Below are positions 18,801-52,323 of a stretch of 64,000 nt of DNA, piece after piece. Origin of the DNA: a virus. The DNA is taken from IMG/VR virus record IMGVR_UViG_3300030104_003796, positions 2,936-66,935 of that record. One strand, written 5' to 3'. Both the position numbers and the translations under genes were made by a program. The number at the start of each line of letters is the position of its first letter. The stretch's first letter is position 1. The notes beneath the pieces were generated by a model that was given only the letters and a program-made list of their open reading frames with translations, did no database searches and was not told the DNA's origin.

Positions 18801-19825
18801 ATGTTCCAGCAACCTTTGTAAAATATACGGATGCGGGTTTGGGGCTTAACAATGAAACAATGGTTATACGCCGCATAGATTGGTCGGTCAAAGGAAGAAA
18901 TATAGAAGAAGTTAATTTAGAATTAGAACGTGATGAATCATTATCAGCCGGTGGTATTACATCATATCTTTTCCCGACTTTCCCCGCTAATTCAAAAATA
19001 CCAAGAAACACTATGCCGGAAGCGTCTTCTTCCGGTCAAGACGGCGTGGTCGTTGTAAAGTCTATGCGAGAACCAATAGGTGAAATGGGCGATGATAACG
19101 ATGCGAACCCTACCGGTGGTGGGAATGCAGGAAGTGGTAATAGAGGCGCAGGAAACGGTGTCGTGTATTCACCAACAGTTAGCGTCAATCAATTTAACCC
19201 TAATTTCATTTCAAGAGTAAAGGGCCGTATGGCTATGGATGGGGATAAATTCGCACCTCAAGGTGAATTTGGTATCTTAGGTGGTGCAAGGCCAAGTGTA
19301 GCGGCATCCTCGATGCGTTCAATCGGCGGTTTAGAATACTTTATTCCAACAGAAGGTGCGGCAAGCAAAACGCCGGAAGGTATAAGTTTATCAGCCGGTA
19401 ATTTTTCTGTTGATACATCTTCAAGCGTGTTATCAGAAATAAAAGGAGTATTTACTGTTGCTTCGGATGTAATCACAGATGAGATAGGCTTACAAGTAAA
19501 ATTAAGTCATGGGGCATTAAGTAAATACAGTAAAACCGCTACTTTGTATGCCGAGATAAAATGTGTTGAAACAGATACTAACATTACAACAGCAATCAGT
19601 ATAAATTCTGGGATTGAAAATAAAACCTATTCAATCATACCAAGTGAAAGCCTGTCCGGTGCTTCGACAAAAGGCAATACATTAGAAATAAAATTGTATA
19701 GAAAGTATGGGGAAGGTGATGACGATTCAAATAGTGCAATTAGGATTAGTGAAGTTATGGTTAATCAAAGAAGGTCTGCTTTCCCATCTGCTAACCAATC
19801 AAAAGATTTTTCTCAATTCTCGTAA
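12830..19825 (+). CDS. Very large tail tip/baseplate-hub protein (~2330 aa)
   Basis: Follows the tape measure gene; S/T/G/N-rich beta composition; hub-like segments (WMGVVEDMKI...ELKARD; VGKDGRIEYRP). Confidence 0.7.
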   Translation: MVRTVNSKYGAWLATYYDDFASARAIANDDNSPSATASYDKDKTHYGNPMNGEAILNPRYRWSNNEMNKNNGYNTALIGSSDETKELSNRGTFEWLSLDTTRQKASEYEGRAQLQYPDGNVGNKWRFDASGSDAYLLFSNGHDSLGKYIVPLGGDDSTFGRATMNNYNVANHDTNKNAGVHTQTAGFVQRAHLAGVWMGETTEYAHKDGGTVESPRNVFQPVKSPSGQPFLVVQSFHASDSSKASTIPSIAYDGSLNSVGDDDVFTVRFAVRAYSGATSNEGKLTPTATVKFGYTGSGAGTDLEDGISGAPKVAWEIDLSSYNTHPFKYGDSTTETDEVTHWIDLDFVLDYTNSKFKVYQDGTEVTSTNSLGGSYSSGYALTSATAADMYGWEMEVKPASSQTNVNCVLMLDRAAMYRPLTDHPDGRELPPLEQMKMIQPVNGFSSLSVKLSDEPAPEGGANVGVNTDDYAHHLISLFNRSAISDIYLLLFTNPTRGFTNETHTIDRPTWMGVVEDMKIQQETKDRRIELKARDMTSLLDRQIPLWEVGQKGLNEDESQTPYWLYDAQGMRSIMNLGATPLKTLDNSVGFDVDDDYKELKNQRLQLNSAHPIQMYNNENTDYGPNDIETEYEGAGILGFGQEWSNAVSPTSMTKILFNGTVSFSSGDTFKITDSTNHNGPTIGNATVQSFGSGTENGNSFVTIDTPNYVSESPKILYAGQGKFVRITRTIPGFFTHDYQDEITSYPTANDPLSENLVIAFDADPQLLPNDTIYISNYDLSTSGTKASRQITPQALAGLHKIKKVTKIWNYYSTYSTQAYIWVADTFTKYTDVGAEFGTYTSNTGLKSGDDRGSFSTDRGITNTIPTAQDKNLDNKAVHAVWMRDLPKSLWFQYHFGDIQKGPTATANLGATASFGTDEIQVNFTSDQFNAIPDSGIGEIDDKGRLEKNRIRDKFIYRAKVNDSGTYWLVGVSYLSKPHATTYSEVGVSLATQVHICNISNDYKHIWLLWSDMRNNGKADADGAYRKEDFGLIYPTNDNYEVSMFYTDQDTNADGKPDRFTELKLGEEIDLWNINSNNDPSTNGAFSKPADYANKVSISSLSDNSGKLRIATSNTGSITTNDYIHLINTGSHDGLHKVTNVSSNTHFDVDTDFISTTINTKGGFYAPTTGSDQDLSQYQDWEDKGGSFLTIDCSKFFNMNTLANSGKTGQFAGGKTDLGDFIATIKGYPTLIDNYWAEITSNPENTNSPYASHRNKDFLINEPKVINNDIEKGDFFIKLDSTQGFDEKGGYGILLGVNNDSTTNQTTTKRYLNYNHLLNTEVSGTLTAKSASTTTYTLTDSSQTFQTKGVKAGMLIENTTTSLTNYTQTILGVTYTMKRLFRIKSVDSETQLTVQLMYYLSSEFGPAGTSALAIGLHDLSSVRNLTAGEQALWGSTNNYSIPIQLSNVSTFDVPEDYALDTSELVNKVAEAYFNLTEADHHITTSFSTSAFDTIQIHTSLSPLFLLRLMMDIDGFVRSPNMGSFWDSDKFRLLWNAGLMQTWMPQTRLPVVFDINNVPITTNMTTYNDKTSNDSYGSIVDSRGKALWETIRRIKEGSGVGYTNGLATTFSYLVGKDGRIEYRPKYNSGHDLSRDNIQINSLKTNIAGRISHVRLYYRNGQSFVDFPEAALTDTTRWKILEYPEVNGDLEALSLAKKEYNSLKESRLSVKASPMRDTSTDDIMLTHGRYGYIADPYRAIQGYNNAIAGGSSWTSFAAGGAPFTGMSNALNGNLKTSTDIYNRYGNSASAGSSSTINYDDNYYFYGANSLAHAVQIVHVPSKCPLVSGTTGEELRVAVHLSGGTTIDDAQFTIGLYDYSYSTSSSAKGGGAPTMVASLATNGYEKADAVQSGFYEIKVPDSYDADGILNDGSIVVSFNADYCRALLRHRCGDPTHANILKNAHDITGITSFGSPYNTNSIFPIGMRKFTEMSSFADDRTEWYAPRVHITYDYNYVPATFVKYTDAGLGLNNETMVIRRIDWSVKGRNIEEVNLELERDESLSAGGITSYLFPTFPANSKIPRNTMPEASSSGQDGVVVVKSMREPIGEMGDDNDANPTGGGNAGSGNRGAGNGVVYSPTVSVNQFNPNFISRVKGRMAMDGDKFAPQGEFGILGGARPSVAASSMRSIGGLEYFIPTEGAASKTPEGISLSAGNFSVDTSSSVLSEIKGVFTVASDVITDEIGLQVKLSHGALSKYSKTATLYAEIKCVETDTNITTAISINSGIENKTYSIIPSESLSGASTKGNTLEIKLYRKYGEGDDDSNSAIRISEVMVNQRRSAFPSANQSKDFSQFS

Positions 19826-20511
19826 TCTTTTCTAAGGGCAAGTATTTTTCTCGCCATCGTGCGGGTTATCCCGTCTATCTCCATCAATTGCTTCTGTGTA
19901 GTTTTCTTGAGAAGAAGGTTTGGTATCGAACTAAATTTCTTCAAGACGGCTTCTGCCCTCTCCGGCGTGATACCATGTATGTGTGTTAGAGCCGCTACTC
20001 GCGGGTCAAGGGGCTTTCCGGCAACGGGGCGTGGTTGTTTGGCCTTCTTGACTATCTCCATCTGTGTGTGCGACACCGCTAAGAAATCAACAAATTCTTC
20101 CATCGTAGCAAATTCCATATATTTGATTCGTGGGAATCGTTGATAGAAAGTTTGCTTGAATGATAGGATAGTCTTCTTCATCTTAGCGGTTTCGATAGCG
20201 TAATCTCGCTTAGTCATCTTACCTCGCACATAGGGCTTGAGGGTTGTTCCATAGACGACAAGCATAGGCTCGTCAAATTCCTCGTCTAAATCTCTCAATT
20301 GGTCTAAGATTGTCCGTGTCCTTCCCATGCCGAGAATAGAACGGTAAAGGTCATTTATCTCCTTAGCCTCTATACCACGATTACCTATGATGTAATCCGC
20401 CGCACTTAATCTTCTGACTTTGGCCTTGCCGCCTTTAGCATCGGCATCACCTAATTTAGCCATTATTTTATTTATGACGACTTCGTTTTCTCGGTCATCC
20501 ACTACCAACAT
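19813..20511 (-). CDS. ERCC4/XPF (Hef-like) structure-specific nuclease with C-terminal helix-hairpin-helix
   Basis: VDDRE, ADYII, IEAKEINDL nuclease motifs; HhH motifs IHGIT and IDGIT. Confidence 0.85.
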   Translation of the reverse strand: MLVVDDRENEVVINKIMAKLGDADAKGGKAKVRRLSAADYIIGNRGIEAKEINDLYRSILGMGRTRTILDQLRDLDEEFDEPMLVVYGTTLKPYVRGKMTKRDYAIETAKMKKTILSFKQTFYQRFPRIKYMEFATMEEFVDFLAVSHTQMEIVKKAKQPRPVAGKPLDPRVAALTHIHGITPERAEAVLKKFSSIPNLLLKKTTQKQLMEIDGITRTMARKILALRKDYEN

Positions 20512-33524: not shown

Positions 33525-33782
33525 TTATTCATCCCTCATAAACGGGTCATTGACTAAGATGTAATCCTTGAGCCTATCCATTTGTTTTCGGTTAATGTTC
33601 CACGCTTCACACACGGAAACATCAGTTAGTTTGTAGCCACCCACATACCATCTAACGCCATCAGATTGTATGACGGCGAGAAGCCCATCATCCTTCATGG
33701 CTTGGATTAACTTAGGCCATTCGTGTTCGTAAATCGGCCTCGCCCATAGGCTTCTGCGAGAACCACTACGCCATGTCTTCAT
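33525..33782 (-). CDS. Hypothetical protein
   Basis: ATGA overlap with the upstream gene. Confidence 0.55.
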   Translation of the reverse strand: MKTWRSGSRRSLWARPIYEHEWPKLIQAMKDDGLLAVIQSDGVRWYVGGYKLTDVSVCEAWNINRKQMDRLKDYILVNDPFMRDE

Positions 33783-34405
33783 TCAACCACCTTAAATTTA
33801 GCGTCTATTATATTTGGTTCATTTAACAACCGCATTTTATTTTCTATACGGTCTAATAATTCGGGTTGCTCAATCAAAGTATCAACGAGTATTCTATTCA
33901 TCTGATTGAGTCGTGCTTCCGCGAGAAGCAATTGAGAATCAACGCCTATTTCTTTCTTCAATTGACCTACCAATTTCAGACTTGAATTAGCCTGTGCAAT
34001 CAGACGGGCGGCATCGGCTACAAATTCTGATGTGATACCATCACCGCTTGCTTCCTTTTCATCCTCTAACTCATCAAGATAGCCACGAATACGGAATACA
34101 ATGTCTTCTGCGGCATCTAACGTGTTGATAGATTGTCTTCGTGCATCCTCTATGTGTTCGGCCTCAGACGGGTCGTAATCAATATGATTTTCCATGTGTT
34201 CCATGATTGTTCCTTCAGCCCACCCATGCTTCACTTCTAAAAAATGAGGGCCTATTTCTTCTGTGTGAATCTGTATCTCGTATTCCTTCCGGTCTTTGTG
34301 TTTGCACATAGGGCAACCACCATCGAGAACCCACCTTAGAACCTCAACGGTGAATGGGTCATCCTCACGCACCATTCGGTCTTCTATCTCTCGTCTTGTT
34401 CTCAT
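33779..34405 (-). CDS. Zinc-finger/HTH plus coiled-coil protein (possible terminase small subunit-like)
   Basis: CPMCKH...HMENH followed by long amphipathic helices and an IIDAKFKVVE tail. Confidence 0.5.
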   Translation of the reverse strand: MRTRREIEDRMVREDDPFTVEVLRWVLDGGCPMCKHKDRKEYEIQIHTEEIGPHFLEVKHGWAEGTIMEHMENHIDYDPSEAEHIEDARRQSINTLDAAEDIVFRIRGYLDELEDEKEASGDGITSEFVADAARLIAQANSSLKLVGQLKKEIGVDSQLLLAEARLNQMNRILVDTLIEQPELLDRIENKMRLLNEPNIIDAKFKVVE

Positions 34406-43845: not shown

Positions 43846-44865
43846 TTATAGGTGTGCATCAACGAGTCTGCCCCAAGCCTTAGTCATCATCTTATCACCA
43901 ACACCAAAGACCGCGTTTTCTGCGGTTTTTTGTTTGATACTTCCTTCGGAACCAAAGACGGCGTTAGCCTTTTGGAATGAATGATGCGTTACGTGTTCGG
44001 TCAGCGTATTATACGCCGCCCACGCAGTATCAGCCATTCCGCCTGTGGTGTTCGTTGGTGCAGTTTCTAACTCAAGCAATTCGTCAAGTTTGCGGTTGCC
44101 CTGTGCAGATAGACCATAAATATTAGTCGTATCTTTTTTAGTGCGTTCCGCATCAGCCTTACCGAGATAACCTGTGTCGATATAGAATTCTATTCTATCC
44201 GCCATATCCATGTGGACCTCAAGCAAACCGTTGGCTTGCTCGGCCCATTTTTTATTTAGGGTGTTGGTCAATTTCAAAGCCCTGCTAAGGTGCTTGATTT
44301 TGTCGTGCATTCTTGACGAATGACGAATAACCAAATCAGATGGTTTGATGCCCATTTCCCTCATGTTATGAAGGACCGCGCTCGTCTGATTTCTGCAAAA
44401 CAGACGGTTAAGAGTCGGAAGGACTCTAAAGGCTTGTGAGCCATCATAGGCATTCGACAGATAGATTTTAGCGTTGGAGACGTCGTTATCACCAATGGTG
44501 ATATGTTCGGGCAGTGCTAACTGCGCAAAAATTCTCGCGCCGCCATCAGTCTGCCCGACTCTCTCCCACTCCGCTTGACCTGCGCCGACTAATCCATCGG
44601 CAACCGAAAACATTTCTGTTGGTTGGAGGTTGGTATAATTTTTACCAACCGCACCTAACGGTTGCCCTGTGTCGGACCGGAAATTTACGCTATACCTTTC
44701 GGGTAGCAATTCCCCTGTGTCTGGGTGTGGGATTCGCCGCTTCTCAACGGTGAAGTCCAAACCTGCGTTCTTCATTACTTCTTCATTTGTTCGGCCAACG
44801 GCTTCCTGCCCCATCAATAGATGAGCAGGAATCGTCTTACCGATTCTTTGTCTAAAATAATCCAA
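43846..44865 (-). CDS. DUF932-family phage/plasmid protein
   Basis: AGLDFTVEKR, RSDTGQPLGAVGKNY, NAYDGS, RLFCRNQ, IRHS, TAWAAYNTLTE; probable TTG start after GAGGTG. Confidence 0.85.
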   Translation of the reverse strand: MDYFRQRIGKTIPAHLLMGQEAVGRTNEEVMKNAGLDFTVEKRRIPHPDTGELLPERYSVNFRSDTGQPLGAVGKNYTNLQPTEMFSVADGLVGAGQAEWERVGQTDGGARIFAQLALPEHITIGDNDVSNAKIYLSNAYDGSQAFRVLPTLNRLFCRNQTSAVLHNMREMGIKPSDLVIRHSSRMHDKIKHLSRALKLTNTLNKKWAEQANGLLEVHMDMADRIEFYIDTGYLGKADAERTKKDTTNIYGLSAQGNRKLDELLELETAPTNTTGGMADTAWAAYNTLTEHVTHHSFQKANAVFGSEGSIKQKTAENAVFGVGDKMMTKAWGRLVDAHL

Positions 44866-44984
44866 ATTTTTCACCTCTTTTTTTTTCAAACACTCAACCG
44901 CTATCATCGCCCTTGACTTCAAAGGCTCAATAGGTTGGTAGGGAGATTTTTTAGTTCTCCCATAATATATACTAATAACTAATA

Positions 44985-45010
44985 GTATTTAAGGTTTTTT
45001 ATCGTGAGTT
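44985..45010 (-). promoter_or_regulatory. Repeated promoter, copy 4 (AACTCACGATAAAAAACCTTAAATAC)
   Basis: Same 26-bp motif, abutting a TTATGTAAC site. Confidence 0.8.
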
Positions 45011-45034
45011 ATTATGTAACATCTTTTTTTCCGC

Positions 45035-45075
45035 AAAAAAAATCACCGACCCGCTCCCCGAAGGGAACGAGTCGG
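45035..45075 (-). terminator. Hairpin plus oligo-T terminator
   Basis: CCGACUCGUUCCC-UUCG-GGGAGCGGGUCGG followed by a T8 tract on the - strand. Confidence 0.65.
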
Positions 45076-45117
45076 CTTACGTATTTCAGAATCTATTTTT
45101 TCAGTCGTTGTTTTTTT

Positions 45118-45312
45118 TCACTCAACGATTTCAAGAATGCTCGGATGCTTTGCGACTCTCCATACTTCGCCGCTTGCGCTACGGCCATTTATGCCTCTCG
45201 CCTCATGCGTCTTCACCTTGACTGATTTTTGGTTCACTTTGATAACTTCACCTACGGTCTTTTGACCATTGGCTCTCCCAAATCTGACCTTCATTCCAAT
45301 TTTCAAATCCAT
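45118..45312 (-). CDS. Small SH3/KOW-like protein
   Basis: LKIGMKVRF...GEVIKVNQKSVKV...WRV. Confidence 0.6.
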   Translation of the reverse strand: MDLKIGMKVRFGRANGQKTVGEVIKVNQKSVKVKTHEARGINGRSASGEVWRVAKHPSILEIVE

Positions 45313-45356
45313 TCTTTTTTCACCCCCTTTTTTTTTAACGGTTGATTTTTTCTGTT

Positions 45357-45635
45357 TCACTCAATGACTATGTATTCGCCCGATGCGACTTTAGCCCGAA
45401 CATCTTTGATGCTCATTTCGCCCAAAAATCTTAACAGGTATTTATTTGTCGTTGCGCTATACATATTCCAATATGGTTCAAACAAAGTTATTTGGTTTCC
45501 ACCTTTAGGCCCGATTTCGCCGTAATCTCTCACGGCTACTATGGACTCGTACGACTGAAAAATTTTCCGCGCACCCTCACTAATGATGTATTGGTTTTTT
45601 GCTATCGTTCTTACTCTTGATGTAATTCTATTCAT
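45357..45635 (-). CDS. Hypothetical protein
   Basis: FQSYESIVA...YSATTNKYL motif; follows promoter copy 5. Confidence 0.6.
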   Translation of the reverse strand: MNRITSRVRTIAKNQYIISEGARKIFQSYESIVAVRDYGEIGPKGGNQITLFEPYWNMYSATTNKYLLRFLGEMSIKDVRAKVASGEYIVIE

Positions 45636-45663
45636 AATCCTCAATATGAAGTATATAGTCATA

Positions 45664-45689
45664 GTATTTAACTTTTTTTATCGTGAGTT
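45664..45689 (-). promoter_or_regulatory. Repeated promoter, copy 5 (AACTCACGATAAAAAAAGTTAAATAC)
   Basis: Same 26-bp motif, abutting three tandem TTATGTAAC sites with 19-bp period. Confidence 0.8.
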
Positions 45690-45878
45690 ATTATGTAACT
45701 TCTTTTTTATTATGTAACTTCTTTTTTATTATGTAACTTACCTGTGCTACCAAGATAAAAATTATGTAACTTTATATTTTTATCGCAAAAAAAAATAGGG
45801 GGGAGATTTACTCAAACATCTCCTTCAATCTGCGCTCAAATCGCGCCCACATTTTTTCGGTTGATAATTTTTTAGTCA

Positions 45879-46403
45879 TTATTTTTTCTCCTTGCAGTTT
45901 TTACAGATGCCGACTTTCTCGGCGGCGTTCCACATCACGAAGTCGCGCACAGGTGCGCGGGCATTACATGATGAGCAGGAAAGATAGACGGCAATATCAA
46001 TGCCGTTTGTTGGTTGCATCGTGCGCGTGTAGTCGCGCATCTGCGCGGCAATTTTTGCCGCCTGTCTGAGTCGTGCGGCCTCTCTTTTCTCGGCCCTATT
46101 TTTATTGACCCACGCTATGCGCTCGTTGGTGTCGTCTTCTTTTGGTGGGGTGAATGACCTTGACTTCGGACATGATGGGCGGTGCTTGCGAGAAGGACAA
46201 CCACAGGCACGGAGTTTGACTTTACCGCGTCCGCCCATGTGCTGACCTTTTTTTCTCTTGATACCGTGTCGAGGATTTTCGGCGGGTAATTTTTTGCATG
46301 GCTCACACATGACGCGAGAGCGACCCTTGAGATTCTGTTCAAATTCTTTAGAGCATCGGCGGCAGGTGAAATATCTTATCTTTATCTTTTTATTCTGAGG
46401 CAT
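45879..46403 (-). CDS. Basic multi-zinc-finger protein
   Basis: CRRC..CEPC, CGC..H..C, CSSC..CKNC; AGGAG leader. Confidence 0.65.
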   Translation of the reverse strand: MPQNKKIKIRYFTCRRCSKEFEQNLKGRSRVMCEPCKKLPAENPRHGIKRKKGQHMGGRGKVKLRACGCPSRKHRPSCPKSRSFTPPKEDDTNERIAWVNKNRAEKREAARLRQAAKIAAQMRDYTRTMQPTNGIDIAVYLSCSSCNARAPVRDFVMWNAAEKVGICKNCKEKK

Positions 46404-46617
46404 TGTTTTTTCTCCTGTGTTGTTCGCGGGTGTGTGTGTGTCTGTCCATAATATACCATCTTTTTCATAGTATATAATACTATCTTAGTGCGATTCTCCT
46501 TTTATGTAACATTATTATGTAACTTTTTTTCTCTTTTTTTTACACAGAATCAAGATACGAATTATGTAACTTATCTGCTGTGCTGGTCCAAAAAAAAATA
46601 AGGTCAAAAAATTATTT

Positions 46618-47034
46618 TCAATCCTCACGCGGTCGCTCATGAGGCGGGAGAGAAAATTTACAGCGCCTAAATCTGCTTCGGCGAATGGTTTTGCTTCCGG
46701 CTTCGGTTTCCGGCTCTTGTGCTGGTTGGTTTCGGTGGGCTATTCGCTCTCGTAACTCGACGTTACTGATGCGGTAGGGCATCGGATTATCATTGACCGA
46801 ACATTTCCATTGGTATCTCCGCTCATCACAGAAGCAATCAGCGAGGGTGTATCTTGAGCCGCTTCGCGGGCATCGGTAGGGCTTGCGTATTTTTTCCCCG
46901 TTTTCATCCTCAACCATTGGGTTGAATTTTCGGTTGAACCTTCGGATTATTTCGGGGGTTATTTTTCCAGCATGAGGCCCCATTTTTTCAGCATCACCAC
47001 ATAACCTACACCAACGACTTCGGCACATAAACAA
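46618..47034 (-). CDS. Cys/Arg-rich hypothetical protein
   Basis: CRSRWCRLC and CPRS..CFC; start codon uncertain. Confidence 0.45.
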   Translation of the reverse strand: MFMCRSRWCRLCGDAEKMGPHAGKITPEIIRRFNRKFNPMVEDENGEKIRKPYRCPRSGSRYTLADCFCDERRYQWKCSVNDNPMPYRISNVELRERIAHRNQPAQEPETEAGSKTIRRSRFRRCKFSLPPHERPRED

Positions 47035-47918
47035 GCGTTATTTTTTTTATATTTAAGGTCGGCGATTTCCCATTCTCCTTTTATGTAACTCTTTTATGTA
47101 ACTTTAGTTTAATTCAAAAGTTTATGTAACTTTCTTTTGTGATTTAAAAAATTATGTAACCTTCTTTTTTTCTGCCCCCTTTTTTTATGTAACTAAATGT
47201 AACTATAATCGTAATTTATGTAACGTTTTTTTATGTAACTAATTTTATCCGCCTTATTATGTAACTTTTCTTATGTAACTTTTTTCTTATGTAACTTTTA
47301 TTATGTAACGCTACCTACACAAGCACACGCGCGGATTTTTTTTGTTACATAATATGGTTACATAATTTTTTGAGATACACAATATGGTTACATAATTTTT
47401 GATTGGTGTTACATAATATCAGATTGGAGTTACATAAGGTGTTACAATGAGTTACATAATGCCCGAAAAAAAAGTTACATAATACTATTGGGGTTTTAGG
47501 TCCTTTTTTTGGGGTTTTTGGCTATTATGTAACTAACGAAATGGCTGTCTCTCGATTAGGGGGTAAAACGATGATGGGTTTCATTAGTTACATAATCGAA
47601 ATCCGAAAATCGGCTCAATTGTGGTGAACAGGCTCGCAGTATAGCGTTTTCATGTGGTATTTAGGGCGACCTAAACTCCGAAAAACACCCCGAAATTATG
47701 TAACTTTATTTTGGCGCATTATGTAACTCTAAATCGAGATTGCTCAATCGTGCATACTATATACTATGACTTCCTCTCAGAAGCGGGCCGGACTCGCAAA
47801 ATATTATGTAACATTCTTGATTCCACTAAAAAATTATGTAACTTCGCTAAATCATAGAAATTATGTAACATATTATGTAACACGCCGGTTCTTAAGTGGA
47901 GGCTTGTTCGCTCATAAT

Positions 47919-48128
47919 ATGTCGGAAGACAGGGAGAAAACGAAGCAAGAACAACGAAAGCAATCGCTTGTTAATGCGCTAATCATCGTGAAGTTGATTG
48001 GCCCTAATATGCGAAAGACTCAACCGGAGTCATCATGGTCCACAGACCTACGAGATGACCCCGATATTGAGGCGGTAATCACGGCCCACATATCAGAAGA
48101 TGTGAACATGAATTGTGAGGTGTATTGA
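47919..48128 (+). CDS. Hypothetical protein (MSEDREK...), probably leaderless
   Basis: In-frame ATG about 22 nt after CTTAAGT; the upstream part of track ORF 47766 is repeat DNA. Confidence 0.55.
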   Translation: MSEDREKTKQEQRKQSLVNALIIVKLIGPNMRKTQPESSWSTDLRDDPDIEAVITAHISEDVNMNCEVY

Positions 48129-48506
48129 ATGACGTTCCGCATCACTACAAGGGGCGCGGATGCGTCAAAGGATGGTGAGAGATACCGAAAGGAGGTGGAT
48201 GCAAACGATACGAAGACGTCATCATGGCGGCTCGTATTGCGAGATGACGGCAAGCACTTCATGGAATCATGGGTTGAAACATATCATCACCACTCCGGCA
48301 AGTCAAGGACGAGTTATGTAACTATCAGATTATCAGATGAAGAAGTCGCAGACATGGGAGATGCAATCAACGGATTCAATATCCATCATCACCCATTACA
48401 TCAATTAACGGGTGAATACGAGATTCCAACCACGCACCTATATGCTGGCGATGAAATCACAGGCTCACACCAAACCAACGAAGACCTAAAGATTCAGAAT
48501 GACTGA
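48129..48506 (+). CDS. Hypothetical protein
   Basis: GAGGTG leader; followed by a GC hairpin. Confidence 0.65.
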   Translation: MTFRITTRGADASKDGERYRKEVDANDTKTSSWRLVLRDDGKHFMESWVETYHHHSGKSRTSYVTIRLSDEEVADMGDAINGFNIHHHPLHQLTGEYEIPTTHLYAGDEITGSHQTNEDLKIQND

Positions 48507-48519
48507 TTATGTAACTTAA

Positions 48520-48551
48520 TGGGGGGTAGGGCCGCTTCATTCCTGCCCCCC
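48520..48551 (+). terminator. GC-rich hairpin after ORF 48129-48506
   Basis: GGGGGGTAGG-N11-CCTGCCCCCC. Confidence 0.45.
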
Positions 48552-48871
48552 AACCAAGTTATGTAACTTTGTCCTTTTTTGTAACTCCGCTATTATGTAA
48601 CTTCGCTCTTTTTTAAGAAACCAATATTATGTAACATCAGAAACCTGCGAAACTGGCTCAAATTTCAAGGTTGAAAAATTATGTAACTAAGGGAGTATAT
48701 AAGCAACGGACCGAAAAATGGCCTCGCGTTGTGCAAAAAGTCCGTTCAGAAAAATTGCGATTATGTAACGACTCAAGGGGTATAAACGATGCACTGCGAG
48801 CCGGAAATTCGGAAACGGGGCTTATGTAACTAAACTGCCCGATTCATATACTACTATAGGAACGGCGGGCC

Positions 48872-50272
48872 ATGTCGGAAGACATAGGAGAAAATGAAGC
48901 AATAAGAACGATTGCAGCAGACGCGCTTAACGCGCCGTCTGCTGTTGTGGTGTTGGGGGCCTTGCTGCCTACCTTCGTCAAATCCTTAATGGCTCTACCA
49001 GCCATCAAGGTCAAGGAGTTAGGTCAAACCTTACTCAGGAACCACCCCAAAACCACCACAAAGAAGAGCACGGTTGAGGCCATTGTTCAGAACGCCAAAG
49101 ACCGCGTTAATCTAATCCCAATATGGGGTAAGCCGATTGACGTTAAGACGGCTAACAAGTGGGCGGCGAATGGTGTATTCGGTGATAGGGTCGGTGAGGT
49201 TGTAAAAATCCATCATTGGGATTCATCAGACTCAGACGACCGATGGAATGAAGCGGCTCGATTCGTCAAGTCATCAAAGACACTTGACGCACTGTATCAA
49301 ACCCTTGATGCACCGTTGAAGATTGTTAGAACTACAAGGACAGCAATCGAGCGCCGAAGTAATGCGGCGGGAATGTACGACACAACAACCGTTACCACGA
49401 AAGGCGAATCACACGGAACAGGTCAGCAAATGAGGCACGAATACCGGCTACGCTGTATTCACCACCTATGTGCTACCGCCTCCGGTGTTCAATCATTCGT
49501 AAGGGGTGTCGGAATGGGTGCATCCATTGAATTGAATCCACCTATTGAGAGAGGTTCGGAAGACTACAACCGAGCATCAAGAGACGTGATTCATCCACCT
49601 TCGACACTGTATGGTGATGAAGGCGACGTGGTGGTCTATGATACACAAGAAGCGAAGAAAAACTGCAAGTGTCCAACTTGCGGCGGTGCTGTGCTTTGGG
49701 ATTGGAGGCTTGCAGGTTCAGCAAGGTCTAATTCTCAGCCTGTCGGCGGTTGGGGTTCGGTTCTGAAACTGCCTTCAATCAAGATGATTCACAGGACAAA
49801 GGAGGCAGGTTATCAAGTGGTTGAGGAAGGTATCGAATCAAACCGCTTAGTCAATTGTGAGATGAATGACGGGTCGCCGAGAATATCAACCACATTCAAC
49901 CGAATGCTCGGATACCCTGCATACGGTCGATATGGTCAAGGTGAAAATCAGCGAGTAGGATACGAAGCAGACCCCGAAGCATACACGATAGACCACAAGG
50001 GAAGGAGAAAGGGAATCCCAAAGACGGTTCACCTACCAGCGTCAATTCAGCGTAGGGTCATACCAATTCAGACCCCCGCCGGTATGTGCTATATGCTCGG
50101 ATGGGTTGCTGTCCATGATATTGATGGATTGGCTCGCGGCATTGAATCAACCAGCCTCGATTCAGTCGCCTTAATGGTCAACATCATTCGTCATCAATTA
50201 GATGCAGGAAACGAAAAGGCTCAAGCGGGTTCTAACCTGCTTGATGCAATCAGCAATTTGACCGATTACTGA
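48872..50272 (+). CDS. Unknown 466-aa protein with a probable zinc site
   Basis: Long ORF with CIHHLC and CKCPTC; TATA-like TCATATAC about 22-28 nt upstream. Confidence 0.75.
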   Translation: MSEDIGENEAIRTIAADALNAPSAVVVLGALLPTFVKSLMALPAIKVKELGQTLLRNHPKTTTKKSTVEAIVQNAKDRVNLIPIWGKPIDVKTANKWAANGVFGDRVGEVVKIHHWDSSDSDDRWNEAARFVKSSKTLDALYQTLDAPLKIVRTTRTAIERRSNAAGMYDTTTVTTKGESHGTGQQMRHEYRLRCIHHLCATASGVQSFVRGVGMGASIELNPPIERGSEDYNRASRDVIHPPSTLYGDEGDVVVYDTQEAKKNCKCPTCGGAVLWDWRLAGSARSNSQPVGGWGSVLKLPSIKMIHRTKEAGYQVVEEGIESNRLVNCEMNDGSPRISTTFNRMLGYPAYGRYGQGENQRVGYEADPEAYTIDHKGRRKGIPKTVHLPASIQRRVIPIQTPAGMCYMLGWVAVHDIDGLARGIESTSLDSVALMVNIIRHQLDAGNEKAQAGSNLLDAISNLTDY

Positions 50273-50285
50273 TTGCAGAAATTCG

Positions 50286-50317
50286 GGTGGTCGTAGGTTA
50301 GAACCTGCGGCCACCCA
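50286..50317 (+). terminator. Long hairpin after the 466-aa gene
   Basis: GGGTGGTCGTAGGT-TAGA-ACCTGCGGCCACCC with G-U pairs on the + strand. Confidence 0.55.
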
Positions 50318-50542
50318 CCATTCTGATTCGACCTTGATTTGGTGAGCAGTGGTAGCGGTCGCCTTTGCTGTTTCTGATATCGTAGCGTCAAACGTAGCGC
50401 ACGAAACCCCCTCACAGGATGCAAAGCACCACAAGAAGCCCCCGCCTCTTAGGCAACGGCATATCAGCCGCCAAATATTAGAGCGGCACGACGACGTATG
50501 TTGGCTACCCCCACGCGAAATTTTTTACAAAATTTTTAATAA

Positions 50543-50830
50543 TCACTTTGGGTCATCAGTGTTTGAGCCGACTCCCTCATTCCCCTCGTTGGCTCGCCAT
50601 TGAAGTCTTTGGTCTTTACTTCGTGTTTCAAGTGGTAGTTTATTTCGCAGTAGTGCGAATCTAACTGCTTCGGGTCGGAATTTGCCCCAATACTTCGGAA
50701 TGTTTTTACTGATTTCCTCAGAAATTTCACGCGCTATACGCCATTCTTCAAAGTAGCCTTCGTTAAACAATCTCATTATTGCTTCGTTTGCTAACTCTTT
50801 TCTTGTCTTCGGCCCAAATTTCGTTCTCAT
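50543..50830 (-). CDS. Small winged-helix-like protein downstream of the terminase
   Basis: ATGA overlap with terL; WRIAREISEEI...AVRFAL...WR. Confidence 0.5.
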   Translation of the reverse strand: MRTKFGPKTRKELANEAIMRLFNEGYFEEWRIAREISEEISKNIPKYWGKFRPEAVRFALLRNKLPLETRSKDQRLQWRANEGNEGVGSNTDDPK

Positions 50831-52323
50831 CTCTTAATCACCTTTCCGCCTATACCTTTTGCTCCCCGATTTACTTTAGAACCACTACCACCGAGCCATT
50901 CTCCGGCTTCTGCCTTTTTCATAATAACGGGCATTTCAAATCCCTTAGCAGTAAATTGGTCTATTGCGTGTGCAAACGCCATTACACAATCGTTATGTTT
51001 TCCTAAGTCTTCAATAAGACCGTTTTTCCATGCGTGTGTTTCTAATTCGTCAAAGAGGGTGTTCACTTGCATTCGTGTGTTATGGTCGCCGTATGGGAAT
51101 ATAATTAACTCGCGCTCAAACCAAACACGAAGTCTATTGAGTATTCCCTGCTTTAGTGTGCGGTTGCTAACTTTGCTACCTCGATAATCCACATTTGCAT
51201 TTTTCTGTTCAATAAGACTCTTGTATAACTGCTGGAATCCCACATCTTCGGATGCAAAGGCAGGATAACCATATCTCTTATTCCATTCAATAATCATGTC
51301 TGCCTGTCTGTCCGGTGGAAAATCATTACGTCGCCACATATTTACAAAGTGGATAAAGCCCTCTTGGTCTTGCTTAAGGACAATCATAACTGAAAAGTCC
51401 TTTCCTAAACCATGTGCGGGGTCAAACCCAATACTATACTTGCAGTTATCATCTTTTTCTGTTTGAAATATATCATCCATGTTAAGATGTTTTCTAACTA
51501 ACTCTCTCGGATATACTGCGGCTTCGTCATCAATAACCCTGCACAAATACTCCTGCACAAAAGCCAATTCACCCATACCTTCTCGTTGCTCAAGGAGATA
51601 AGCCGCACTTCGATATTCTTCCCAAAGCACTTCGGGTTTTATTTCACCATCACTTGCTCGCCATTCGTCATAGTTAGTGATAGCGGAATACACGGCTGAT
51701 TTCCAAACGGGGTTTTCTAACATTTCCGTGTGGTATAAATCAACCATACTCATTGGTGTTCCCACGCAGTAAAACCACGAATCGGGGCTTAACATAGGGA
51801 TAATTGCTTTCTTATACCATGATTGCAGGGCCTTAGGGTTGGTATCGTCTGAATCAACCAACACATCGTCAAATGCTACACAGGCAGGATGCGCCCCACG
51901 AATCGCAGAACCAACAGATGTAGCACGAATCCATGCACCGTTGGTAAAATGCAATTCTAATTTGTTGCCTTTGGAGGGGCTAATGTATTTTCTTAACTGT
52001 GGGTGCTTCTTTAGGTCGGCTCGTATTTCCTCAAGCCTTTGAGCGGCAGTATCTTTACTCGCTGAGATGAGCCAACAGGTAAAGGGTGAACCATCACCCT
52101 TCTTCTCATAGAGGCATTGGTGCAATAATTTAACACGAAGGGTTGTTGATTTGGAATGGTCGCGTGGTGCAATAATACAGACACGATGAACGGATGCGCC
52201 TTTTCTATCTGAATATAGGTCCATCCATTCTCCGATGTGCTTACCCCATGTGTAGCCGAGCCATTTATAGAAATAGGCAATATCTTTCCTACTTCTTTCC
52301 ATAGAAAAATTAGTATTACTCAT
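50827..52323 (-). CDS. terL: Terminase large subunit
   Basis: PRDHSKST Walker A, IRGAHPACVAFDD Walker B, VGTP, QEYLC, GFDPA and HNDCVMA nuclease motifs. Confidence 0.93.
   Translation of the reverse strand: MSNTNFSMERSRKDIAYFYKWLGYTWGKHIGEWMDLYSDRKGASVHRVCIIAPRDHSKSTTLRVKLLHQCLYEKKGDGSPFTCWLISASKDTAAQRLEEIRADLKKHPQLRKYISPSKGNKLELHFTNGAWIRATSVGSAIRGAHPACVAFDDVLVDSDDTNPKALQSWYKKAIIPMLSPDSWFYCVGTPMSMVDLYHTEMLENPVWKSAVYSAITNYDEWRASDGEIKPEVLWEEYRSAAYLLEQREGMGELAFVQEYLCRVIDDEAAVYPRELVRKHLNMDDIFQTEKDDNCKYSIGFDPAHGLGKDFSVMIVLKQDQEGFIHFVNMWRRNDFPPDRQADMIIEWNKRYGYPAFASEDVGFQQLYKSLIEQKNANVDYRGSKVSNRTLKQGILNRLRVWFERELIIFPYGDHNTRMQVNTLFDELETHAWKNGLIEDLGKHNDCVMAFAHAIDQFTAKGFEMPVIMKKAEAGEWLGGSGSKVNRGAKGIGGKVIKR

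Follow-up and report, generated by a model that had tools for sequence, protein, structure and literature searches.

A block of about 3.8 kb in the genome of an uncultured ocean virus carries 42 exact copies of a 9-bp box, TTATGTAAC. The copies are under purifying selection, the one nearest each gene keeps a set place relative to a TATA-like box, and related viruses have counterparts in the form of arrays of variant boxes. With about even confidence, the boxes are read as putative docking sites for one sequence-specific regulator of promoter-gene-terminator cassettes, and as recombination joints between those cassettes.

The window (the whole stretch of viral DNA analysed, 64,000 nt) contained 42 exact matches to TTATGTAAC on both strands, 34 on the + strand and 8 on the - strand, with 0.85 expected; the maximum count in 100 dinucleotide-preserving shuffles was four. 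All copies fell within 45012-48830, the first starting at 45012 and the last occupying 48822-48830. The whole assembly (66,935 bp), one circular contig whose first 50 bases recur at about 66,836, held the same 42 copies and none extra. A first-pass annotation had reported about 42 sites between these limits and had noticed none elsewhere; the genome-wide count agrees on both points. Near-matches were scarce: ten one-mismatch copies occurred in the window, one inside the array region (48577) and nine outside, where about 21 copies with at most one mismatch were expected by chance.

Forty-one boxes lay outside the eight gene models, although 54% of the region (2073 of 3819 bases) is coding; the exception, at 48314, lies inside gene model 48129-48506. 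Altogether the copies were distributed over ten spacers, and each cluster stood beside a promoter. An A preceded the box in 29 of 42 copies and a T followed it in 28 of 42, leading into T-rich DNA. Box spacing was irregular, from 12 to more than 50 bp with no period (shortest centre-to-centre distances, 12-16 bp), and no helical phase was found among the 42 copies. A CRISPR array, with repeats of 25-40 bp, a constant period and unique spacers, was rejected because the spacing of the 9-bp box is irregular and lacks helical phase, in line with the initial description of irregular, T-rich spacing.

The box is an asymmetric site; 34 of the 42 copies share one orientation, which tracks the genome and not the direction of the genes. 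Genes diverge at about 47.0-47.9 kb and, the terminase operon apart, converge only at 19.8 kb, which is the layout originally proposed. A distance of 1.7 kb separates the array from the end of the terminase operon. The parts of the array, and the two proteins encoded within it and at its edge, were as follows:

45012..45020, + strand: single box, 19 nt upstream of a TATA-like box (44985-44992, - strand) before the DUF932 gene 43846-44922.
45691..45770, + strand: cluster of four boxes, three belonging to a 19-bp tandem unit; its first box is 19 nt upstream of a TATA-like box (45664-45671, - strand) of unit 45118-45662.
45879..46403, - strand: 174-aa basic multi-zinc-ribbon protein, conserved in relatives with and without arrays.
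46502..46570, + strand: cluster of three boxes, 22 nt upstream of a TATA-like box (46470-46479, - strand) that belongs to the Cys-rich gene 45879-46403; the cluster doubles as the left copy of the direct repeat flanking the 46618-47028 unit.
47081..47309, + strand: eleven forward boxes, the first 24 nt upstream of a TATA-like box (47049-47056, - strand) that stands 20 nt before the ATG at 47028.
47310..47343, + strand: 34-bp centre, GCTACCTACACAAGCACACGCGCGGATTTTTTTT, a GC-rich stretch with T8 at its end.
47344..47482, - strand: seven reverse boxes, facing the eleven forward boxes.
47525..47727, both strands (+, -, +, +): four boxes in a conserved spacer that ends at a TATA-like stretch (47753-47765).
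47804..47881, + strand: four boxes, the last 7 nt upstream of a TATA-like box (47889-47897) that stands 21 nt before the ATG at 47919 (69-aa gene, then 48129-48506).
48314..48322, + strand: lone box within a gene model (48129-48506).
48507..48830, + strand: seven boxes, the last 12 nt upstream of a TATA-like box (48843-48851) that stands 20 nt before the ATG at 48872.
48872..50272, + strand: orphan protein of 466 aa that contains Cys residues, at the array edge facing the terminase.

The arrangement of eleven forward and seven reverse copies across a 34-bp centre was as first described. Together with its flanking boxes, the centre can fold as a nested inverted repeat (z = -4.3). Its element CACGCGCGGATTTTTTTT was kept in two relatives (L118 and L120), and a related element occurs at 50504-50526. 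In the same two relatives one or two whole copies of the reverse boxes were missing, and the aligned copies were identical. The spacer holding the four boxes of 47525..47727 also contains a possible 28-codon ORF (47541-47627).

Six archaeal-type TATA-like boxes each had a TTATGTAAC box 7-24 nt upstream, and in four of the six cases a start codon followed the TATA-like box by 20-25 nt. Leftward promoters had the box reversed, with 19-24 nt between it and the TATA box; at rightward promoters the distance was 7-12 nt. The - strand promoters at 44985 and 45664 had a run of six to seven A residues ahead of the TATA box. A TATA-like box preceded each unit of the block, a hairpin with a T-run (45045-45076) followed 45118, and T-runs followed other units, giving small single genes with their own promoter and terminator. 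A stereotyped unit was found in four relatives (L167, L171, L155 and L170), namely direct copies, an inverted pair, 9-14 nt, a TATA-like box, 20-22 nt and an ATG.

TATA-like boxes also stood 19-22 nt before the start codons of several other unit-leading genes. The best full-length matches of the PolB were to haloarchaeal tailed viruses (23-27% identity), the best match of the clamp loader was an RFC small subunit (1.7e-42), and a nuclease with ERCC4 and HhH domains is encoded. On account of these four features, the virus host is probably an archaeon.

Under the docking interpretation, one sequence-specific DNA-binding protein would dock on the boxes in every non-coding spacer of the accessory block, whose small genes are probably early. 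The gene-proximal copy lies just upstream of an archaeal-type TATA promoter, and binding at many neighbouring boxes would switch all cassettes on or off together. Because an identical sequence returns at each cassette boundary, the boxes may in addition serve as joints at which single cassettes, or the block in its entirety, can be acquired, lost or traded among related viruses. Two of the observations against docking concern orientation and number: the opposite box sense and unequal TATA distances are unusual for an activator contacting the initiation complex, and forty to seventy copies are far above the use made of sites by known archaeal regulators.

Selection was measured against three mutually non-independent relatives (L118, L120 and L123). 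Among the aligned positions, 549 of 556 in boxes were identical, compared with 1609 of 1814 in spacers (Fisher p = 3e-17). The remaining box differences were losses of whole copies. A terminase gene search of viral_contigs returned 218 relatives, of which 80 were kept, and 37 loci (window included) reached at least 3 kb past the terminase gene. Seventeen of the 37 loci carried a box specific to the lineage, in 14-68 copies and with a core of the TGTA/TACA type (TGTA or CGTA), eight contained 9-24 copies of a TGGAT-type box, AATCCAAA, and 12 had no array. Relatives thus carry equivalent arrays, the lack of which would have spoken against the first-pass annotation. Its general idea of a nucleoprotein platform is upheld by these arrays and by the purifying selection, while the packaging site and iteron origin that it offered as possible functions fared poorly, as set out below, and its injection-control signal gained no support.

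The accessory block is exchanged as a whole between relatives. On the terminase tree the array label needed at least four changes, and one tight terminase clade comprised L170 (TGTA type), L162 (no array) and L175 (TGGAT type). Relative L121, with 91-92% DNA identity to the window on both sides, had a different block holding 41-50 copies of TATTGTAAC. Its terminase operon was 91% identical in DNA and its large terminase 97% identical in protein. A site recognised by the terminase is therefore unlikely, as the box changes from TTATGTAAC to TATTGTAAC while the terminase operon stays 91% identical; a pac or cos site would be expected to co-vary with its terminase. The array could still be a platform for the packaging or ejection machinery at a genome end, or a set of polar sites protecting the first-entering DNA end like Chi, and its position 1.7 kb from the terminase operon and the shared orientation of 34 copies regardless of gene direction would suit such a signal. 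Relatives of the same terminase clade lack an array altogether, however, and the inverted pairs at a fixed TATA distance would be left unexplained, making a packaging or DNA-entry signal the least probable of the explanations considered.

An iteron-type origin or episome tether, with the repeats as the loading site of an initiator or tethering protein, on the model of EBNA1 at the oriP family of repeats or of initiators at plasmid iterons, was judged very improbable. Many direct and inverted copies surround a central spacer at divergent transcription, and a large orphan protein is encoded beside the array in 17 of 17 TGTA-type loci, versus 0 of 12 array-less loci. However, an iteron origin is a compact cluster with an AT-rich unwinding element and an initiator gene; here ten promoter-side clusters extend over 3.8 kb, and the protein scans gave no initiator family. 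The array is missing from twelve relatives that share the replication genes, GC skew mirrors gene direction and nothing else, and no integrase or partition gene was found among the proteins scanned.

Exchange was visible at the level of cassettes and of single boxes. The unit 46524-47094 was absent in L118 and in the window is flanked by a direct repeat, ATTCTCCTTTTATGTAAC, 4 nt, TTATGTAAC; with the block exchange in L121, this amounts to units gained, lost or swapped at a repeat. Runs X1/X2 showed whole-box indels at 45688 and 46555: one 19-bp unit of the 45691..45770 cluster was missing, and a 26-bp insertion at 46555 carried one extra box. The X1/X2 contig 45661-50040 had about 1.3 times the depth of its flanks, and alternative flanks. 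PeSL (promoter-early stem-loop) elements of T4-type phages are repeats that mark shuffling points between accessory promoter-gene-terminator units, and the boxes might likewise be recombination joints only, that is, homology patches or recombinase sites that shuffle cassettes and have no regulatory binding. The cassette indel between two box pairs, the whole-box indels within one sample, the block exchanged between close relatives and the deeper X1/X2 contig would all follow from such a role. It is nevertheless quite improbable: a stretch of nine bases is too short by itself to support homologous recombination, the accessory block yielded no recombinase gene, and the alternative X1/X2 junctions lay at 26-bp promoter copies (44981 and 45663), not at boxes. 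The fixed TATA distance and the inverted pairs at promoters point to transcription.

As a further point against docking, no viral protein that tracks the box was found in the relatives, and no protein family was specific to TGTA-type arrays among the relatives compared. Of the candidate binders, the Zn-finger ORF 45879-46403 was argued against by its family, which was 94.7% identical between L170, with 59-67 boxes, and L162, which has one copy of the L170 box, outside the accessory-gene block. The small post-terminase protein showed 81% identity across two lineages whose boxes differ and 42% across two that share a box, and the large edge protein was only 34% identical between two same-box lineages. 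The 466-aa protein (48872..50272), by its positional association only, is a candidate binder or early effector. A scan of 54 window proteins, some small ORFs among them, against PHROGs, Pfam or NCBIfam gave no match to repressor, integrase or partition families and none to a regulator family; protein 33779-34405 had no match in the family profile scan. As the docking protein, a regulator encoded by the virus is about as likely as an EarA-kind activator captured from the host.

Outside the viruses, the TTATGTAAC 9-mer was repeated in tandem at six Methanosarcina loci, in combination with five different spacer units; these arrays may be unrelated tandem repeats. The viral array could instead be chiefly a decoy: as viral DNA multiplies, it would draw a DNA-binding protein of the host (for example an EarA-type activator, a defence protein or a chromatin protein) off the host chromosome, with viral gene control secondary. 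The 42-68 exact copies per genome far exceed the needs of promoter control, and the search for a viral binder came up empty. The TACA core is common to lineages with unrelated accessory genes, which fits a conserved host protein family, and from the Methanosarcina arrays, if related, some archaeal protein may read the box. The decoy gains some further ground from the resemblance to EarA boxes, but the fixed place of the gene-nearest copy relative to the TATA box is needless for a pure decoy and near-identical viruses carry different box variants; as the main function, it was considered unlikely. Distinctly unlikely, too, is an exchangeable host-capture module whose boxes would seize an EarA-kind host activator, fire the first viral genes before any viral protein exists and, as the DNA multiplies, drain the activator from host targets such as the motility operon. 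If so, the host lineage open to takeover by a virus would be marked by its box variant, and a virus could change host by swapping the module.

To our knowledge, almost nothing is known of how the uncultured, abundant tailed viruses of marine archaea control their genes. The present clade is a large one, with at least 218 contigs in a single viral collection. With 40-70 copies of one exact box, and close relatives carrying other variants or no array, it provides a natural experiment in which the binder, viral or host, is open to direct testing with synthetic probes. Under the docking interpretation, the boxes mark out the accessory genes as being regulated together, probably in the service of host takeover or anti-defence. 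Were the binder a host protein, the box variant could serve as a sequence-based host clue for an uncultured virus.

Several known systems resemble the array in part. PeSL elements combine a bacterial promoter and a hairpin, one per gene, whereas the array consists of a short protein-type box in multiple copies. The viral regulator F55 of SSV1 binds two tandem 11-bp repeats at four promoters. The intergenic repeats of halovirus HF2 (29 and 58 bp) are the promoters themselves (PMC8707807). Both the F55 operators and the HF2 repeats are, like the array, repeated elements at archaeal virus promoters, but neither is a dense array of one box.

The stoperators of Cluster A mycobacteriophages (L5 gp71-type repressor) are many copies of an asymmetric site in short non-coding gaps, read by a monomeric repressor, with site variants that differ between related phages (PMC6550527, PMC9283540). 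The 42 asymmetric sites, 41 of them non-coding, and the variants in relatives match this pattern. Stoperators, however, are genome-wide, run one way relative to transcription and belong to temperate bacteriophages with a known HTH repressor; the array is confined to 3.8 kb of 66.9 kb and presents opposite orientations to leftward and rightward genes, and neither a cognate HTH repressor nor a temperate integrase or parABS system was found among the 54 scanned window proteins.

Early anti-defence genes of archaeal viruses (SIRV2 and others; Aca8) have virus-specific regulatory sequences. As in the array, the same virus-specific sequence there surrounds the strong BRE/TATA promoter of small single genes of unassigned function, and flanks that differ between viruses are taken as regulator sites (PMC11065993). 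Those elements, from rod-shaped and filamentous viruses of hyperthermophiles, are a single conserved sequence or a single inverted repeat per promoter, whereas the array has 3-14 boxes per spacer.

EarA, whose boxes are upstream activating sites of archaellum operons in Euryarchaeota, binds four TACATA boxes right before an A-rich BRE in Methanococcus maripaludis; in Thermococcales one to three copies of the motif A(C/G)(C/G)TACA(T/C) stand 9 nt ahead of the BRE (PMC5512572, PMC10665913). EarA sites comprise one to four boxes of 6-8 bp at one operon, while the array and its relatives have 42-68 exact boxes of 9-12 bp at about ten viral promoters, mostly in one genome-wide orientation. The match was noted after the fact, and a chance match among many known motifs is not unlikely. 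In both systems, TACA-core boxes stand side by side just upstream of an archaeal BRE/TATA with an A-rich BRE, and the flanking letters vary between host lineages (PMC5512572, PMC10665913). The window box, GTTACATAA, contains TACATA, and the related viruses keep the TACA core.

The quasi-palindromic box TTATGTAAC was present in 42 copies in the window (0.85 expected; maximum of 4 in 100 shuffles). All 42 copies were confined to 45012-48830, 34 on the + strand and eight on the - strand. The whole 66,935-bp contig, whose opening 50 bases reappear close to the other end and which is thus a circular assembly, contained the same 42 copies. The first-pass annotation had described a dense array noticed only in this stretch, with forward and reverse copies facing each other across a 34-bp centre, and the counts and layout agreed with that description.

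Layout around the centre of the array
47081-47309, + strand: 11 forward boxes, facing the reverse boxes
Between 47309 and 47344: 34-bp centre, GC-rich, with T8 at its end
47344-47482, - strand: seven reverse boxes, facing the forward boxes

Boxes with a single mismatch numbered one within the region and nine outside it, which was below chance expectation. Forty-one of the 42 boxes fell outside the eight gene models, in a region that was 54% coding. Minimum centre-to-centre spacing was 12-15 bp in every lineage, which fits side-by-side packing of one protein per box; helical phase was absent. A search of 44000-51000 against Rfam gave no match. Conservation of the central spacer (47483-47700) was above that of its surroundings. 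A possible 28-codon ORF in this spacer (47541-47627, +), which includes the box at 47587, was open in the relative L120 despite many base changes. A single low-depth contig from a relative, in sequencing run X20, tracked the forward boxes to 47295 and continued into the reverse complement of the 34-bp centre; it would fit a centre inverted between the facing boxes.

Searching a viral contig collection with the large terminase identified 218 relatives, of which 80 were fetched and their words counted per locus. Several carried arrays of their own box.

Boxes of arrays in terminase relatives
L118, L120, L123: TTATGTAAC, 39, 32 and 14 copies
L121: TATTGTAAC, 41-50 copies
L155: TTATGTAGT, 62 copies
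L167: TTTTGTAAC, 64 copies
L170: TTTGTAGTA, 59 copies (59-67 across the analysis)
L171 and others: TTTTGTAGTT, 63 copies
L192: TTTTGTAGGG, 46 copies
L187, L190, L194: further box variants, 16-33 copies

A TGTA (TACA) core was common to the window-type box and the boxes of L121, L155, L167, L170, L171, L187, L190, L192, and L194. In a census of 37 loci including the window, each extending 3 kb or more past the terminase gene, 17 contained a TGTA- or CGTA-core box (14-68 copies), eight contained AATCCAAA (9-24 copies), and 12 contained no array. The first-pass annotation would have counted the lack of an equivalent array in relatives against its proposal; such arrays were present in relatives. 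The array is a genuine, non-random feature, and its design is conserved. The second box, AATCCAAA (TTTGGATT), occurred in its 9-24 copies nearly all in one orientation (L124, L132, L141, L142, L145, L148, L151, and L175), and was also present four to six times inside some TGTA-type arrays (L155, L170, and L171). Scanning viral_contigs for stretches with two copies of the box returned at least 117, mostly chance pairs or tandem repeats; among these, tblastn of 18 window proteins gave weak matches (22-31% identity) in four loci, to the polymerase, the clamp loader, and one other protein.

The boxes were placed at promoters. In L167, L171, L155, and L170, nearly every small gene was preceded by a stereotyped unit. 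It opened with several direct copies and two inverted copies separated by 2-4 nt; after a further 9-14 nt came a TATA-like box (TTCATATAG, TTTAAAAGG, TTCTTAAAG, or TTAAATAC), followed after 20-22 nt by the ATG. Promoters in the window were arranged as follows.

Box-associated promoters in the window
Rightward: box 48822, 12 nt, TATA-like box 48843-48851, 20 nt, ATG 48872
Rightward: box 47873, 7 nt, TATA-like box 47889-47897, 21 nt, ATG 47919
Leftward: box in the opposite sense, 19-24 nt, TATA-like boxes 47049, 46470, 45664, and 44985

According to passages of PMC5512572, the usual binding site of archaeal activators is immediately before the BRE; the nearest box, just upstream of the TATA-like box, was at this site. 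Box orientation tracks the genome and not the gene, which a simple activator picture leaves unexplained. A bacterial promoter model was also considered. A sigma-70 scan found nine sites against 12.6 expected, and the distance from box to '-10' was not common across lineages; archaeal TATA promoters were therefore preferred. The long ORF at 47766-48128 (+) probably starts at 47919, with its TATA-like box 21 nt upstream, and the first residues from this start, MSED, are also those of a 466-aa protein (48872-50272, +). A 26-bp promoter occurred in five copies (44985-44992 and 45664-45671 on the - strand, 32105, 38848, and 43203) and directly adjoined a TTATGTAAC box at two of them (boxes 45012 and 45691).

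The virus encoded the tape-measure protein, portal, and large terminase of a tailed virus, together with a family-B DNA polymerase, an RFC-kind clamp loader, a DNA methyltransferase, and DUF932. The terminase had less than 25% identity throughout to phage records, with no cultured relative among them; blastn of the region against phage records and a search of genome_contigs with the large terminase gave no match. The best full-length polymerase matches were to haloarchaeal tailed viruses (23-27% identity), and the clamp loader best matched an archaeal RFC small subunit (1.7e-42). An ERCC4 nuclease with helix-hairpin-helix motifs (19813-20511, -; 232 aa), a short XPF-like form without helicase, was located where two long gene arms converge. 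In genes leading a unit, 19-22 nt separated a TATA-like box from the start codon, and there was no ribosome-binding site. This is the geometry of archaeal leaderless promoters, whose TATA box has its centre 26-27 nt ahead of the start site according to PMC5512572. From the polymerase, clamp loader, ERCC4 nuclease, and promoter geometry we infer an archaeal host. The runs containing this DNA were marine metagenomes; all 20 runs were examined as assembled contigs. The single RNA-library run yielded only short contigs, 90-95% alike, which were not counted as evidence of transcription.

Euryarchaeal promoters offer a resemblance. In Methanococcus, the target of the activator EarA is a set of four TACATA boxes directly before an A-rich BRE (passages of PMC5512572). 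In Thermococcales, A(C/G)(C/G)TACA(T/C) is present as one to three neighbouring copies, placed 9 nt upstream of the BRE (passages of PMC10665913). On its other strand the window box, GTTACATAA, includes TACATA; the boxes of relatives retain TACA with varying flanks, and an A6-7 run precedes the TATA box at two leftward window promoters. The likeness to EarA boxes is an after-the-fact resemblance, and the boxes of the virus exceed EarA boxes in length and, by far, in number.

Copies of the 9-mer were also found in cellular genomes. A three-copy scan of genome_contigs returned 92 stretches. Regular tandem repeats predominated among the top loci by copy number, which came from a wide range of bacteria and from some archaea, and tblastn of the stretches gave no link to the virus and no host assignment. 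Six Methanosarcina loci (L203, L218, L258, L260, L272, and L274), far above their share of the collection among 92 matches, contained tandem arrays of GTTACATAA with five different spacer units; similar arrays occurred in other archaea (L214, L217, and L235). Copy numbers in these archaeal arrays were 3-9, the spacer units varied, and the genes that followed were unrelated; in L272 four copies preceded an Orc1/Cdc6 gene by ~160 bp. The Methanosarcina arrays hint that some archaeal protein reads the 9-mer; they may also be repeats unrelated to the viral box.

Aligning the spacers 47081-47765 and 48507-48871 with L118, L120, and L123 revealed identity at 549 of 556 aligned box sites against 1609 of 1814 spacer sites (Fisher p = 3e-17; the three loci are mutually related, so the comparisons are not independent trials, and the contrast is still large). 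Other box differences in these alignments were losses of whole copies. On these alignments every box copy is under selection. Whole-copy changes were also seen inside a single sample: in contigs from the best-matching runs, a 19-bp unit and its box were missing at 45688, and a 26-bp insertion added a box at 46555.

Three viral proteins were considered as the binder of the boxes. The first-pass annotation had named neighbouring Zn-finger ORFs. The 174-aa basic multi-zinc-ribbon protein (45879-46403) was rejected as specificity determinant because its family is 94.7% identical between L170, with 59-67 boxes, and L162, where the L170 box occurs just once and lies outside the accessory-gene block. 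This family was present in 17 loci, and its profile matched 44 representative clusters among 1.84 billion proteins. The predicted structure (mean pLDDT 77.7, pTM 0.29) comprised zinc ribbons and a long helix, and Foldseek against PDB gave no match at E <= 0.001.

The 466-aa protein, another candidate of that annotation, belongs to a set of large proteins containing Cys that were always encoded where TGTA-type arrays end on the terminase side. Such a protein was found in 17 of 17 loci with a TGTA-type array and 0 of 12 loci without an array, the loci being linked by descent and position; it was in two of the eight TGGAT-type loci (AATCCAAA) and absent from six. Its position by TGTA-type arrays favored the candidate. 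Against it, the edge proteins fell into four or more groups without detectable relation to one another and shared only 34-41% identity between same-box lineages. By hhalign, the 466-aa protein was linked to the 368-468-aa proteins of L187 and L194 (95-96%) and, in the same set, was unrelated to the 289-361-aa family of other lineages. It had no match in Pfam, PHROG, or NCBIfam, its Atlas scores were <=0.77, and its clusters among 5.8 billion proteins numbered only 15, with identities of 82-99% for 14. Its model (mean pLDDT 51.6) was too poor for a fold search.

The 95-aa protein directly after the large terminase (50543-50830, -) was present in 77 of 81 loci, some with an array and some lacking one. 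Visual inspection suggests a small winged-helix (wHTH-like) protein, and it evolves far faster than the terminase (42-87% vs. 83-95% identity). It was rejected as the binder, being 81% identical between different-box lineages and 42% between same-box lineages. Iterated hmmsearch and a small hhalign set identified no protein family specific to array-bearing loci within ~10 kb on either side of the terminase gene. The box core was kept across blocks with unrelated genes, which, with no conserved viral candidate, points to a very fast-evolving viral regulator or a host protein.

The accessory block differed between close relatives. The DNA of L121 matched the window at 91-92% identity on either side of the block (54251-50502 and 43389-42153 of the window); between these flanks, L121 carried a different gene set and the TATTGTAAC array. 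On the terminase tree, the label 'TGTA array' required at least four changes, and one tight clade contained L170 (TGTA type), L162 (no array), and L175 (TGGAT type). A unit with 46618-47028 was missing from L118; in the window a direct repeat, ATTCTCCTTTTATGTAAC-4 nt-TTATGTAAC, bordered this unit on both sides. In runs X1 and X2, word depth of the contig covering 45661-50040 was ~1.3 times that of flanking contigs (43.7 vs. 31-33 and 107 vs. 82), not twofold as for a terminal repeat; a second genotype sharing the block is more likely. Other contigs in these runs departed from the window sequence at 44981, 45663, and 49875, and depth and alternative contigs together are as expected if co-occurring genotypes share the block. 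The loose ends at 44981 and 45663 coincided exactly with two copies of the 26-bp promoter; recombination between such copies may remove or replace the 45118-45662 unit. On sequence comparison, the best reading is that the accessory block moves as a module with boxes as its joints.

Overall, the array is best read as a dense set of docking boxes for one sequence-specific regulator. This predicted regulator would govern a series of promoter-gene-terminator cassettes in a probably archaeal virus, and cassette exchange would take place at the same boxes. No support was found for the origin, packaging-site, or injection-control readings that had been proposed, and that of a sponge for a host DNA-binding protein is a possible, less likely alternative.

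Dense short-box arrays in archaeal tailed viruses were not found described in a literature search of abstracts and main texts, and the words 'repeat', 'promoter', 'TATA', 'motif', and 'intergenic' were absent from the magrovirus paper (PMC5434244). The closest known kinds included EarA-type upstream boxes, the stoperator arrays of Cluster A mycobacteriophages, and the virus-specific regulatory sequences at early genes of Sulfolobales viruses. PeSL cassettes are also among the closest kinds. None of EarA boxes, stoperators, Sulfolobales sequences, and PeSL combines 40-70 exact copies with lineage-specific variants and module exchange.
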